64,000 bases of DNA from an uncultured Verrucomicrobiae bacterium (GTDB lineage: Bacteria; Verrucomicrobiota; Verrucomicrobiia; Chthoniobacterales; UBA10450), in NCBI GenBank assembly GCA_963815455.1, contig CAWFGO010000001.1:832001-896000 (forward strand). Reading direction: 5' to 3'. Below the pieces are notes generated by a model. That model searched no databases. It was not told the DNA's origin and worked only from the letters and a program-made list of their open reading frames with translations. Shown here one piece after another: positions 58,949 to 64,000 of the stretch; the first letter of the stretch is position 1; the number at the start of each line of letters is the position of its first letter. A program made the position numbers and the translations under genes.

Positions 58949-60701
58949 CTAGCCAAAGCGGCCAATCCAAAAATTCCCGAGAACCAGCACATCCATCTTG
59001 GTGCGCAGGAAACAGTCGAGCGCTTCCTCGGGATAACAGACGATCGGTTCATTTTCGTTAAACGACGTATTCAACACCATGGGAACATCAGTGAGATCGC
59101 GAAAATGCTCGATCAATCGGTAATAGCGCGGGTTAGTTTCCTTGTGCACGGTCTGTAATCGGCCGCTGCCATCGACGTGCGTGACCGCCGGAACCATGGT
59201 GCGGTGTTTTGGACGAAATTGAAACACTTGCATCATGAATGGGACGTCGTCTTCCTGCTCGAACCAGTCCGACACTGCTTCGCGCAGGATCGACGGCGCA
59301 AACGGCCGGAACGATTCCCGTCGTTTGATCTTCGCATTCAAGATGTCTTTCATGTCGGTCCGGCGCGGGTCCGCCAGGATGGAACGATTTCCCAGGGCCC
59401 GCGGCCCCCATTCCATTCGCCCCTGAAACCAGCCGACGACTTTCCCGTCGGCAATCGCTTGCGCGGTCCGGTGCAACAATTCTTCTTCGTTCGGTCATGA
59501 GTGCAATGGTGCAGCCGGCATTGGCGACTTCCGTTCTCTTCCAATCGAGCAAGGCGTGAATTTCCTCCTCGGACGAGATGAAGGGCCAGAGGTAGAGCGG
59601 AATCCAATTTCGACATCTTCCGATTTCGAATTTCGAATTGCACAACAGCGGCCGCGCCGATGGCGCCACCGGCGTCGCCGGCCGCGGCGGGCAGATACAT
59701 TTTCTTGAACGGCGTCCGGCGATAAACCTTGCCGTTGGCGACCGAATTCATCGCACATCCGCCAGCCAGAGCGAGATTGTCGCTCGGGTGCAGTTTGTGC
59801 AGGGCGTGGAGCAGCTCGAAGAACGCTTTTTCGTAAATCGTCTGCACCGAACGCGCGATGTCCTTGTGTTTTTGTTCGAGCGGTTCGTCCGGTTTTCGCG
59901 GCGGGACCGAGAAGAGCGGTCAGCGTTGTTGCGGTAAAGCGTGCCCACCTCGGGCGCGCAATTTTGCCAACTGTAGGAAACGTTGTCGGTGTGGTGCCGG
60001 AAATATTTCAGGTTCAAGCGGAACGTGCCGTCCGGCCGGATCCGGACCATCTCGCGCATCTGCTCGAGGAACGCCGGCTCGCCATAGGGCGCCAGCCCCA
60101 TGACCTTGTATTCGTCGCCGTAATTGGGGAAACCGATGAACTGGGTAAGCGCCGAGTAAAAAATGCCGAGCGAGTGCGGAAAATAAACGCGATTGTCGAT
60201 CTTGATATTGTCGCCCTCGCCGAATCCGAAAGCGGTGCTGGCAAAATCGCCAAAGCCGTCAATGGAAAGACAGGCGGCTTCGTTGAACCCGGAAACGAGA
60301 AAGGCCGAGGCCAGATGGGCGAGATGGTGTTCGACATGATGGATCTCCGCCTTGAGCGCGACCTGATAGTGCGCTTCGAGCGTTTCCTTGATTCGCGGCG
60401 GCGCTGCGAATATTCCGGATCTTTTGCAATCATCAATTTCGGATGCGGCAGATGCGTCAGGACAAACCCGAGCCGGCGCCAATTGTTTACGCCCGGTTTT
60501 CGATTGATCGCGATATGATCGACATCGCGCCAGTTTCAGCCGCCCTTCGCGCAGGCAATAATCGATCGCCTGCGTCGGCAGACCGGCCCAATGCTTGATC
60601 CGGCGAAACCGCTCCTCTTCCGCCGCGGCGACCAGTTTGCCATCAACAATCAAACACGCGGCGGAATCGGCGTGATAAGCGTTAAGTCCCAGGACGATCA
60701 T
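58949..60701 (-). CDS. NodU/CmcH-family carbamoyltransferase, multiply frameshifted
   Basis: HADSAA, EEERF.R.KH, HHLAH, HSLG, EYKVMGLAPYG, AGGCAMN, GDAGGAIG, GRMEWGPRALGNRS, RESFRPFAP, LNTSFN. Confidence 0.93.
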
Positions 60702-60767
60702 TGCTTCAGTCTCTTGCCGATACTGGCAAAGATCGCAAATAGTTCGAACGATTCTTTGTGAATTTTT

Positions 60768-61652
60768 CTAAATCTTTTTCGGTGGGGGAAGGGTGCCTCC
60801 GTATTTCCAGATCAACCACGGCAGGTCCAAACCGCGCGCGAGGCGTGGGATGAAAACATGCGGTTGACGCAAGAGTCTGAATGCCCACCCCAGATAGTAT
60901 CGATCGGCCCAATCCGGAATGGCGACTTGATCGCCGGTCAGGAATCCAAGGGCGGCACCGATGCAATGGATCGCGGGCCGATATTCAAGACGATCTCGTA
61001 AATAGCGCCCGAGCTTTTCCTGCGGACCGCTCCCGATGCCAATGATGACATGCGCCGGTCGCCTGCTCTCGATCTTTTCGAGCAGCCGTCGATCTTCCAC
61101 AACGGGTTCGTAATGTGGCGCGACATAAAGATCGACATCGGAAGACGCCGATTGATTTGCGCCTAACCAGCGCGTCGTTCTCTCCCGGGCGCTCTCGTTT
61201 GGCAGGACCCAAAGAACGCTCTCCTGTTTTTCCGCAAACAAGCGCGCCGTCAAATGCTGAAGATATTTTAGCCCTGAAATGCGAGGAATCCTTCGGTCGT
61301 GTAGAAATTTCCAAAGCAAGACCATCGCGCCGCTATCGGGGATGGCGAGATCCGCGCTTACCATCGCCTCGCGATAGATGAGATCGCGACGGAGCCGGGC
61401 AAAACATGTCCCCGATGGCGCGACCATAAAACCGCCACGTTGAAACATGACCTCGAGCGCTCGATCGACATCTCCATCGAAGAAACGAATGCCGAGGATT
61501 TTTTGCGACGCGTAATTTGGTTCGCCCGCCGGGCCGAGGATCTGCTCCACGAGGTCAGAGCCTAATCGCGTTTTCGCACCGCGAGAATCTGAATATGCTA
61601 TGCCCTCGTTGACCTCTCTTGCTTCCCCCGTCGAATCGAAACCGGCTCTCAA
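60768..61652 (-). CDS. WecB/TagA/CpsF-family glycosyltransferase; true start probably downstream of the ORF start
   Basis: ADLAIPDSG, RISGLKYL, GSGPQEKLG, CIGAA..F.TG, LGW..RL. Confidence 0.85.
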   Translation of the reverse strand: MRAGFDSTGEAREVNEGIAYSDSRGAKTRLGSDLVEQILGPAGEPNYASQKILGIRFFDGDVDRALEVMFQRGGFMVAPSGTCFARLRRDLIYREAMVSADLAIPDSGAMVLLWKFLHDRRIPRISGLKYLQHLTARLFAEKQESVLWVLPNESARERTTRWLGANQSASSDVDLYVAPHYEPVVEDRRLLEKIESRRPAHVIIGIGSGPQEKLGRYLRDRLEYRPAIHCIGAALGFLTGDQVAIPDWADRYYLGWAFRLLRQPHVFIPRLARGLDLPWLIWKYGGTLPPPKKI

Positions 61653-63262
61653 CCGAGTTGACTCGTCCCGTTCTTGTCCTTGGTGGTCTCTTTCTGGCCG
61701 GGCTCTGGTTCGTACTCTGCCGGCATCTAAGCGACGAATGGACGGTCAACGAACAATACAATTACGGCTGGTTCGTCCCTTTTTTTGCGCTCTTTCTTTT
61801 CTGGTTGCGGTGGGAGGCGCGTCCCGCGCCGGAGATCGGCGATCGGCGGCGAACGTGGGTCGCGGCGCTTATCGTTGTTTCCGCGCTTCTGTTGCTCTTA
61901 CCGGTCCGCGTCTTTGAAATCGGCAATCCCGATTGGCGGCCACTCAGTTGGTTCCATGCCGGTATTGTCGTCGCGATCACTTTGTTTGCGGTCTGGTTTG
62001 CCGGGGGCCGTCCCTGGCTGCGGCATTTCGCGTTTCCAATCGTTTTCTTTCTGGTCGCCGTGCCTTGGATCACGCCGATCGAGGTTCCGATCATCCAGGG
62101 CCTGATGCGATTTGTGGCCGGTTTCGCAACGGAAGCGGTTGCGCTGCTTGGAATTCCCGCAGAACTCGACGGCAATCTGATTCGGATCAACAACGGGCTG
62201 GTCGGCGTGAACGAAGCCTGCAGCGGCGTCCGCTCGTTTCAAACCTCGCTCATGATCGGCCTTCTTTTTGGCGAGCTAAAACGATTGTCGATCTTCAACC
62301 GGGTAGCGCTGGTTGCCGGCGCGATCGCCATCGCCGTGGTCGCCAATTTGGGGCGCGCCACTTTTCTGGTTTGGATCGCCGCCACCAAAAATATCTCCGA
62401 GGTTGATCGCTGGCACGATCTCGCCGGTTACGCAATCGTCGGGATTGTATTCGTCGGCTCGATGTTTTTGGCCGGCTGGCTGGCTAGGCAACAGAGGTCA
62501 CAGGTCGACTCTCCCTCTGGCCGCTCGTCACTCGTCACTCGTCACTTTTTTCGACTTCCTAATTTCTACTTTCTAATTCCGGCCGTGATTTGGATTGCGC
62601 TTGTCGAAATCGGCGCGGCGTCCTGGTACCGGGCGCACGAAACGAACCTGGCGGCGACAGCACGCTGGGATGTTCGCTGGCCGGAATCGGCGCCAAATTT
62701 TCACGAACTGAAAATTCAACAGGCAATCAAGAACACATTGCGCTTCGACGATGGCCGCGAGGTCGCCTGGCGCGAAGAAGCAGATTCGGCCAAGGGCGGA
62801 CTGTATCTGCTTTATTTTTTCCGCTGGGAGCCGGGAACATCGACGGTCCTGCGAGCACGCGCACATCGCCCCGATATCTGTCTGCCCAGTGCGGGCTGGC
62901 GACAAACCGCCGACGAAGGCACTCGTATGTACTCAGTAACAGACAAATTTGCGGTGCCATTTCATCATTTCGCCTTTACCCGCGAAGGCACGGTGCACTC
63001 CCCGCCGGTCTATGCTCATGCCTTCTTTTGTTTGCGCGAAGATACGGTGCGACCCGGTGAAGCGTCGCAGTTAAGCAAGAGTAACCCGGGCGACTGGTCG
63101 CGATCAGAGCGCTGGCGTGTTGTGCGCGAGGGAATTCGCAACCCGGGCCAGCAGGTGATGGAGTTTCTTATGGTGTCGCCGCACCAGCGTTCTAGCGCAG
63201 AAGCCGCGGAGCGCTTCGAACGGCTTCTTCCGGAACTAATCAAGGTGGAAGATAGAAAGTAG
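61619..63262 (+). CDS. Exosortase/archaeosortase-family protein with C-terminal EpsI-like domain
   Basis: W..N.QY.YGW, V.EACSG.RS (Cys), N..R, HD..G (His), H.PDICLP..GW. Confidence 0.9.
   Translation: MLPPSNRNRLSTELTRPVLVLGGLFLAGLWFVLCRHLSDEWTVNEQYNYGWFVPFFALFLFWLRWEARPAPEIGDRRRTWVAALIVVSALLLLLPVRVFEIGNPDWRPLSWFHAGIVVAITLFAVWFAGGRPWLRHFAFPIVFFLVAVPWITPIEVPIIQGLMRFVAGFATEAVALLGIPAELDGNLIRINNGLVGVNEACSGVRSFQTSLMIGLLFGELKRLSIFNRVALVAGAIAIAVVANLGRATFLVWIAATKNISEVDRWHDLAGYAIVGIVFVGSMFLAGWLARQQRSQVDSPSGRSSLVTRHFFRLPNFYFLIPAVIWIALVEIGAASWYRAHETNLAATARWDVRWPESAPNFHELKIQQAIKNTLRFDDGREVAWREEADSAKGGLYLLYFFRWEPGTSTVLRARAHRPDICLPSAGWRQTADEGTRMYSVTDKFAVPFHHFAFTREGTVHSPPVYAHAFFCLREDTVRPGEASQLSKSNPGDWSRSERWRVVREGIRNPGQQVMEFLMVSPHQRSSAEAAERFERLLPELIKVEDRK
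62492..62578. repeat. Composite heptamer arrays in frame within the exosortase linker
   Basis: cagaggt cacaggt; ctcgtca x3 (62524-62544); cttccta atttcta ctttcta (62555-62575). Confidence 0.75.
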
Positions 63263-63287
63263 GAATTACAAAGTAGGAAGTAGAAAA
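63253..63287 (+). repeat. Heptamer array TAGRAAG (5 units), left arm
   Basis: tagaaag taggaat tacaaag taggaag tagaaaa. Confidence 0.88.
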
Positions 63288-63291
63288 CGAG

Positions 63292-63655
63292 ATGGAAAAA
63301 GATCTGGAGCAACGAACGAAGCGATTCGCATTGGCGGTCATTAGATTTGTATCGGCGCTGCCGCGAACGCGCGAAGCAGACGTCTTGGGAAGACAGCTGT
63401 TGCGCTCGGCAACGTCCATCGGTGCAAATTATCGAGAGGCAAACCGCGGGGTGTCCCGGGCCGATTTCGCAAACAAGATCGGTACCGTCCAAAAGGAGGC
63501 TGCCGAAACGCAGTACCTGGCTGGAGCTGGTAACAGAATCCGGAACGGCAAAAGATCCGGCGGCTGATCTTCGCCGCGAGTCATCTGAGCTGCTTGCGAT
63601 TTTTGCAAGCATTGGCAAGAAACTCAAAGAGCAGTCGTCACCTTCTAATTTCTAA
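63292..63655 (+). CDS. Four-helix-bundle protein (23S rRNA IVP / Avd-like fold family), one frameshift
   Basis: DLEQRTKRFA, QLLRSATSIGANYREA, SRADF..KI..V.KEA.ET, then WLEL..E..EL.AIF. Confidence 0.9.
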
Positions 63656-63678
63656 TTTCTACTTCCTACTTCCTTCTA
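63641..63678 (-). repeat. Heptamer array, inverted right arm
   Basis: ccttcta atttcta atttcta cttccta cttcctt cta. Confidence 0.88.
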
Positions 63679-64000
63679 ATGCCTGCTGATTTCATGCTGA
63701 CCGCCGACGAGCGGCGACTCAAACAGCGCAAGCGTCGCCGCGTCGTCGTGCTCCTGCTCCTGTTCGTGCTCATGCTCGGCGCCCTATTTCTTGCCGGCCG
63801 CCCAACCATGAACGCGATCAAAGCCTGGCAGGCACGGCGGCATGCGCGAAGTGCATTTGCCAATATCGAAAAGGAAAAATGGCTGGATGCTCGCAAAGAA
63901 GCGACTGCTGCCTATCAGCTTCGTCCGACCGAACCGGAGGCGTTACGCGCGGTGGCGCGTTTCCTTTCCCGTACCCACCAAGTCGAAGCGCTCGATTTCT
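63679..64000 (+). CDS. Membrane-anchored TPR-like protein, runs off the window
   Basis: MPADFMLTADERRLKQRKRRR, TM helix, then WQARRHA..A..AYQLRP.EPEALR; open to the end. Confidence 0.7.
   Translation, partial: MPADFMLTADERRLKQRKRRRVVVLLLLFVLMLGALFLAGRPTMNAIKAWQARRHARSAFANIEKEKWLDARKEATAAYQLRPTEPEALRAVARFLSRTHQVEALDF

Follow-up and report, generated by a model that had tools for sequence, protein, structure and literature searches.

Comparison with related genomes suggested that a small gene and the inverted arrays of 7-nt units enclosing it form a cassette subject to gain, loss and replacement at the junctions between genes. The cassette probably moves as a unit, and its own protein is predicted to recognize the arms. 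Since the gene-plus-arms unit is present, absent or replaced at one and the same site in relatives, it is likely to represent an undescribed kind of mobile insert. Judged from sequence, it appears to be an element related to the intervening sequences (IVSs) of rRNA but located outside rRNA, and the comparative evidence for its mobility is good. The member of this family described here lies near the end of the window, the 64,000-nt stretch of DNA that was analysed, in a 3.6-Mb genome (G000) that is 90% complete.

The upstream host gene (61619..63262, + strand) encodes an exosortase with an uncertain start codon (TIGR02602, 122.7 bits, cut-off 105.55). The downstream host gene (63679..64000, + strand) extends beyond the window end and encodes 596 aa. 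We take this protein to be TPR-like, following the label in the original prediction; its first 107 aa found no match in an NCBIfam search. The left arm of the cassette (63251..63285, + strand) consists of five 7-nt units with the consensus AGTAGAA (GATAGAA, AGTAGGA, ATTACAA, AGTAGGA and AGTAGAA), and a sixth, degenerate unit precedes them at 63244-63250. This arm carries the last codons of the exosortase gene and its TAG (63260-63262), after which the ATG of the four-helix-bundle gene follows at 63292. The right arm (63643..63677, - strand) consists of five inverted units (TTCTAAT, TTCTAAT, TTCTACT, TCCTACT and TCCTTCT). The original prediction had placed five units before the gene and about five reverse-complement units after it, with the exosortase stop supplied by the left array, and our count of five per side and the position of the TAG agreed with both statements. 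It had also described the right array as abutting the next ATG and supplying the stop of the enclosed gene. The array does end one base short of the ATG at 63679, but the gene carries a 1-base frameshift, and the array therefore provides its stop (TAA, 63653-63655) only in a shifted frame. Tandem Repeats Finder reported period 7 on both flanks of the gene. The inverted match between the arms scored 40; for 1000 random controls the 99th percentile lay at 26, and the best control reached 36. The single ORF of the cassette matched PF05635 and TIGR02436 only, with no transposase of a known family encoded, and an Rfam search of 60000-64000 returned no family at E values up to 1. Across the family, the cassette measures roughly 430 bp and is made up of a four-helix-bundle gene and two inverted arms of four to five heptamers.

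The four-helix-bundle gene (S23p/Avd-like; 63292..63655, + strand) scored 65.8 bits against TIGR02436 (cut-off 24) and 51.3 bits against PF05635 (cut-off 33.8), compared with 67.8 bits for the intact orthologue in genome G035. A single additional base near 63516-63520 disrupts it, so that the assembled reading frame ends at a stop at 63565-63567, outside the right array, and the last helix and the TAA sit in the +1 frame. Sequence comparison indicated that the frameshift is most likely a sequencing error, because a related soil contig (6 differences over 260 nt; depth 2.9) lacks the extra base, the G035 orthologue is intact, and an unrelated assembly (L103) has the identical 1-base insertion in the same codon. 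A programmed frameshift was not favoured, as six full-length homologues in the alignment are intact. It was further disfavoured by two other genes that are likewise broken, the carbamoyltransferase gene of the window and a GIY-YIG ORF in the 23S gene.

The structure model of the G035 orthologue (pLDDT 92.5) adopts a four-helix bundle. Its closest folds were BT_0352 and Xcc0516, and in a wide VIA-align search it gave Z 16.4 with 2RLD (rmsd 1.7, 106 aligned) and Z 15.4 with 2GSC (rmsd 2.2, 108 aligned). The comparison with Avd (4DWL, 8UB7) gave Z 12.3-12.4 and an rmsd of 2.4 over 105-107 aligned residues with 16% identity, and a Z of 12.3 falls in the range of unrelated helical bundles. Residues Q35, S42, N46 and E72 (G035 protein numbering) are nearly invariant in the family. 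The 2RLD structure contains 5 chains, and a homopentameric ring has been reported for Xcc0516, as cited in the accessible text of PMC4990558 and PMC10053308. The same two sources, in the parts available, together with the profile scores and the fold comparison, upheld the original assignment to this family, its link to 23S IVSs and its Avd-like fold.

The arms were a regular companion of the gene. Flanking period-7 inverted arrays had been proposed for the paralogues, and they were found both in this genome, which contains 20 TIGR02436 matches at 19 loci, and in a wider pool. At 18 of the 19 loci (one tie), the upstream flank was matched best by the reverse complement of its own downstream flank, and 18 paralogues exceeded the 99th percentile of 1000 random controls for inverted arms. 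The unit differed at each of the 19 loci, and several of the paralogues look broken. Two paralogues (L018 at C2:636003 and L019 at C1:1594879) are longer, with about 175 codons from the profile start, and have weaker arms. The wider pool comprised 131 loci (19 own, 32 from relatives and 80 from GTDB), of which 124 remained after removal of 2 duplicates and 5 short-flanked loci; loci from G008 and G015 are included, and the conclusions are independent of both. The arms of 111 of the 124 loci scored above all 50 shuffles, the remaining 13 being without clear arms, and the inverted score was higher than the direct score at 118. Among the 111 loci with significant arms, period 7 was best in 99, and arms of 4-5 units were present on the left in 78 and on the right in 75. 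The order of variant units tended to be mirrored between the arms: of 95 loci, 60 exceeded the permutation mean and 31 fell short of it (p 8e-5). The arms are therefore true inverted repeats with a preferred register. This p-value, like the others, overstates the significance, given the kinship among the loci and the choice of 80 of them by peptide patterns. At 99 loci a common unit pattern was recognized, roughly NNRAWKK with fixed polarity, whose information content of 3.21 exceeded the values obtained with permuted columns (1.95) and with polarity assigned at random (2.74).

The unit also varied in step with the protein. The distance between units was 3.6 at 10-20% protein identity and 1.3 at 70-80% (Mantel rho -0.39, with 0 of 500 permutations as strong), and the correspondence, for which FastTree trees were used, as for the host comparisons, extended to clades with members from different phyla. 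Plain co-inheritance would predict such a correlation as well. We also examined what the inverted arrays enclose. Among the 35 inverted array pairs in G000, all 13 rows with loops of 356-532 nt (12 loci) enclose the four-helix family; 19 others have loops of 7-118 nt without a gene, and the remaining 3 extend across host genes. No other small cargo was found between inverted arms among the 35.

Period-7 arrays were abundant beyond the cassettes themselves. We found 160 strict period-7 arrays in G000, whereas the counts for periods 4-13 were 3-59 and codon-shuffled DNA contained none. Slippage is a known origin of short tandem repeats, and with 160 arrays in one genome those beside the four-helix gene might be there by chance. 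We consider this highly improbable, given that codon-shuffled DNA yields no array of comparable score, that matched inverted arms accompany nearly all paralogues and most pooled loci (18/19 and 111/124), and that the unit follows the protein tree. The solo arrays, those away from cassettes, resembled cassette units in 113 of 140 cases, versus 17% of column-shuffled controls. They also faced inward as the arms do, the ratio of left-type to right-type being 20:5 after stops and 7:22 before starts (p 9e-5; 33 arrays were ambiguous, 50 were near no gene end, and the gene calls came from a crude purpose-made caller). Most of the 140 solo arrays thus look like cassette arms.

Some of the arrays have become part of host genes. 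In G000, 24 heptamer arrays lie well inside called ORFs and are translated in frame; the products presumably include proteins resembling AlaRS, TrmD, aconitase and RHS proteins. The exosortase of the window is itself an example. Its linker contains period-7 arrays in frame (62490..62578, + strand) that represent gene-less arms of three unit types, the last block being the same unit as the cassette right arm. Similar nested arms were present in many orthologues of the same family and in none of four orthologues from two other families. The carbamoyltransferase gene of the window (58949-60701, - strand) is in several frameshifted pieces and has a period-7 array inside it at 59606-59639. The 23S gene of G000 (C1:532045-535337) contains no S23p ORF. 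It does carry an insert of about 275 nt with short inverted ends (C1:532625-532908, L225), in which a frameshifted GIY-YIG-like ORF is found, both pieces being below the Pfam cut-off. A 147-nt gene-less hairpin with degenerate heptamer-like arms occurs at C1:534040-534186 (L225) in the same 23S gene. Both inserts are absent from G035, and at the site equivalent to the hairpin G013 has a different hairpin with heptamer units.

The exosortase-TPR junction provided the most direct view of gain and loss. The original prediction of a mobile or excisable cassette had called for empty alleles at this junction, and they exist. Soil contigs about 92% identical to the window, all from one study, run the exosortase gene into the next gene with no cassette between; in three of four runs 63247 is joined to 63679 via 15 letters, and in the fourth 63243 is joined to 63688 via 60 letters. 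Our survey of the junction started from 61 orthologous loci and covered 54 family genomes after removal of 2 duplicates and 5 loci without an exosortase end. The junction was filled in 19 genomes, short and empty in 14, occupied by arms only in 8 and by other DNA in 13. The 19 filled junctions belong to about six clades (7 to clade A, 5 to B, 4 to E, and three singletons). At least 7 presence changes and at least 12 state changes were required on the host-protein tree, and clades A and B interleave inside one well-supported host clade. Arms of different types were also nested at this junction, A-type units lying outside and a different unit inside in G265, G206, G253 and G140, and gene-less nested arms being present in G007 and G061. 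Neither of the findings that would have spoken against the prediction, fixed synteny in all relatives and paralogue flanks unenriched in inverted arrays, was encountered, and a cassette subject to gain and loss is thus supported by both the empty alleles and the arm enrichment.

The empty alleles must be read with care. In G178, G193 and the soil contigs, the exosortase ends in codons resembling the left arm, and these alleles may therefore be deletion products and not pre-insertion sites. The empty alleles were too diverged or deletion-like for a target-site duplication or the exact cassette ends to be fixed from them. Two further arrangements were seen at this junction. In G071 (L191), the four-helix gene is on the opposite strand between very long arms, and an inversion between the arms is possible. 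In G006 and G016 (L084, L085), an unrelated small gene occupies the junction; we assume from its resemblance to PEP-CTERM proteins that it encodes a likely exosortase substrate.

Homologues 77-94% identical to the window gene were found at 5-7 different junctions, all with one unit type. The neighbours at these junctions were named by our recognition of their sequences and should be taken as presumptive, except for the asparagine synthase, carbamoyltransferase and WecG-like genes. One such site lies only 2.5 kb from the window cassette, between the WecG-like and carbamoyltransferase genes, where an armless, internally deleted sister copy of the same clade remains (60695..60783, - strand). In this copy the first codons have been joined to the last helix, and the stop codon shares bases with the start of the carbamoyltransferase gene. 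In L099, a complete cassette occupies this same junction. Most resolved sites of the window's clade fall within polysaccharide gene clusters, and a single neighbour is common to some of them (neighbours were judged by eye), so shuffling of host genes could explain part of the apparent moves.

This leads to a less likely reading, in which the cassette does not move by itself. The junction arrays would serve as sites of recombination or gene conversion, cassettes and adjacent host genes would be swapped through host recombination and through horizontal transfer of polysaccharide-cluster segments, and the protein may be a resident RNA-binding regulator with the arrays as its binding sites. The concentration of clade A sites in similar gene clusters, some with a common neighbour, fits this reading. 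So does the clustering of cassette presence on the host tree (7 changes versus a shuffled mean of 15.7 and a minimum of 11), from which it also follows that copies are inherited for long periods. A regulatory role would agree with the fixed polarity of solo arrays at starts and stops, which MacGregor reported for TAACTGA and interpreted as translational control (PMC4679880), and with the orientation of the paralogues, since 15 of the 18 with both neighbours called are co-oriented with both (2 oppose both). However, unlike units swap and nest at one junction, which recombination between like arrays leaves unexplained. Unrelated genes contain arms that are read in frame, arms are present in 23S rRNA too, and each of the 19 paralogues has its own unit at an unrelated site, several of them looking broken.

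We then considered whether the arms act in RNA. Folding of the transcript predicted a stem of about 25 bp around the ORF (z -2.99, mean pairing probability 0.52), with one dominant register in the ensemble (weight 14.8; slipping by one unit weighed 0.7 and by two units 0.3). The original prediction of a register-slipping stem of ~35 bp was not supported in this form, as the predicted stem is shorter and its register largely fixed. Slipping as the main behaviour was ruled out by these weights together with the mirrored variant units. The pooled loci showed no RNA-strand signature: wobble mismatches numbered 146 on the sense and 151 on the antisense strand, which left the proposal of an RNA-specific stem without support, and the sense duplex was more stable than the antisense duplex at only 49 of 99 loci. 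No reverse transcriptase (PF00078) was matched in the 90%-complete G000, in which an RNase III gene is present. The 16 Y1_Tnp loci of G000 were tried as HUH transposase partners or alternative cargo and rejected, since none had period-7 flanks (0/16 with a score > 6 in the 250 nt before or the 400 nt after the gene). GxxExxY genes (2 loci) were rejected on the same ground.

These data bear on an unlikely alternative that treats the cassette as an intervening sequence of mRNA, whose stem is excised by RNase III, whose RNA is bound by an Avd-like pentamer and which is copied back to DNA by a reverse transcriptase acting in trans. The predicted stem closing round the ORF, the RNase III gene, the resemblance of the four-helix family to Avd and the general rule of co-orientation with operons are all compatible with it. 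A precedent is the Coxiella 23S IVS, which has heptamers before the S23p ORF, a 28-bp terminal stem and excision by RNase III, according to the accessible text of PMC4990558. The lack of sense-strand wobble bias or stability and of a PF00078 match in G000 argues against it, as do the genes opposite to their neighbours (2/18 in G000, and that of G071 at the exosortase junction). Moreover, an mRNA would be split by cutting without re-ligation. A cassette acting at the DNA level was favoured because there was no RNA-strand signal, no reverse transcriptase and no arm at the HUH loci. We therefore rank it first, as the probable explanation, ahead of host recombination with a resident regulator, and place retro-copying of an RNA-level IVS third.

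For the DNA-level cassette, the following mechanism can be envisaged. In single-stranded form, and most likely in DNA, the arms would pair with each other in one fixed register. The protein, predicted to be a pentamer like its solved relatives, may bind the unit of its own clade, about five units per arm, and bring the cassette ends together for a host or trans-acting enzyme, which is invoked because the cassette encodes no known transposase or reverse transcriptase. Operon junctions and the interior of older arms seem to be the preferred landing sites of new copies, a preference that would produce nested arms. Loss of the gene would leave short hairpins and solo arrays, and likely accounts for most of the period-7 arrays in G000. 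At the RNA level, the predicted stem would extend over the gene start and the region ahead of the next gene, and RNase III might cut it, by analogy with rRNA intervening sequences.

Several known systems share features with the cassette. The IVS of Coxiella in helix 45 of 23S rRNA is 428 nt long; its S23p ORF is preceded by heptamers in tandem, and RNase III cuts its terminal stem (accessible text of PMC4990558). ORF-bearing 23S IVSs of this kind resemble the cassette in protein family, size, terminal inverted stem and heptamers before the ORF start. In contrast, one genome contains numerous cassettes that differ from one another in their unit, and cassettes are gained or replaced at junctions. 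The cassette lies between protein-coding genes, so it lacks the 23S location of an IVS; complementary termini, another mark of an IVS, are present as the ~25 bp stem, by prediction only. In the part of PMC4990558 available, the Coxiella repeats are noted only on the 5' side of that one element. Avd of diversity-generating retroelements (DGRs) and the S23p family have been placed in one CDD family (PMC10053308, accessible text). The cassette protein resembles DGR Avd in its four-helix-bundle fold (Z 12.3-12.4), but no reverse transcriptase lies beside the gene, where the neighbours are the exosortase and the 596-aa presumed TPR-like gene, or elsewhere in G000.

The cassette has several features in common with insertion sequences and their MITEs, and with REP/BIME elements and their RAYT transposases. 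These are inverted repeats at the termini, forms with and without a gene, numerous copies between genes, and nested insertions. Unlike insertion sequences and MITEs, it has no transposase of a known family and its arms are tandem heptamers, and unlike the REP/BIME-RAYT system, none of the 16 Y1_Tnp loci is flanked by heptamer arrays. Heptamer repeats have themselves been described, TAACTGA in Beggiatoaceae, Cyanobacteria and Bacteroidetes, for which MacGregor proposed translational control (PMC4679880), and GGGAATC in Xanthomonas (PMC4692102). They likewise occur between genes as short period-7 arrays with an orientation relative to starts and stops, frequently in facing pairs and sometimes in ORFs. 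The accessible texts of the two reports propose translational control or quadruplexes and leave the source of the arrays unexplained, and in the main text of PMC4679880 the terms four helix, intervening and S23 are absent. We found no description of the cassette class in the literature searched, mostly open-access main texts.

Many bacterial genomes contain scattered 7-base repeats that have lacked an explanation, and the cassette is a likely source of them. Since its gene-less arms occur in frame in host proteins and in rRNA, the element would also reshape host genes. A more far-reaching and tentative possibility is a new class of minimal elements in which the PF05635 pentamer would itself act as the mobility protein. 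Each ring would read the five heptamers of each arm in a clade-specific manner and drive insertion into operon junctions, protein loops and rRNA. ORF-bearing 23S IVSs would then represent insertions of such elements into rRNA, Avd would be a relative recruited by DGRs, and the excess of heptamers in many bacterial genomes would be debris of the class. The natural pairs of protein and unit differ by clade. If true, the cassette reading would provide a large orphan protein family with a role and over-represented 7-base repeats with an origin.
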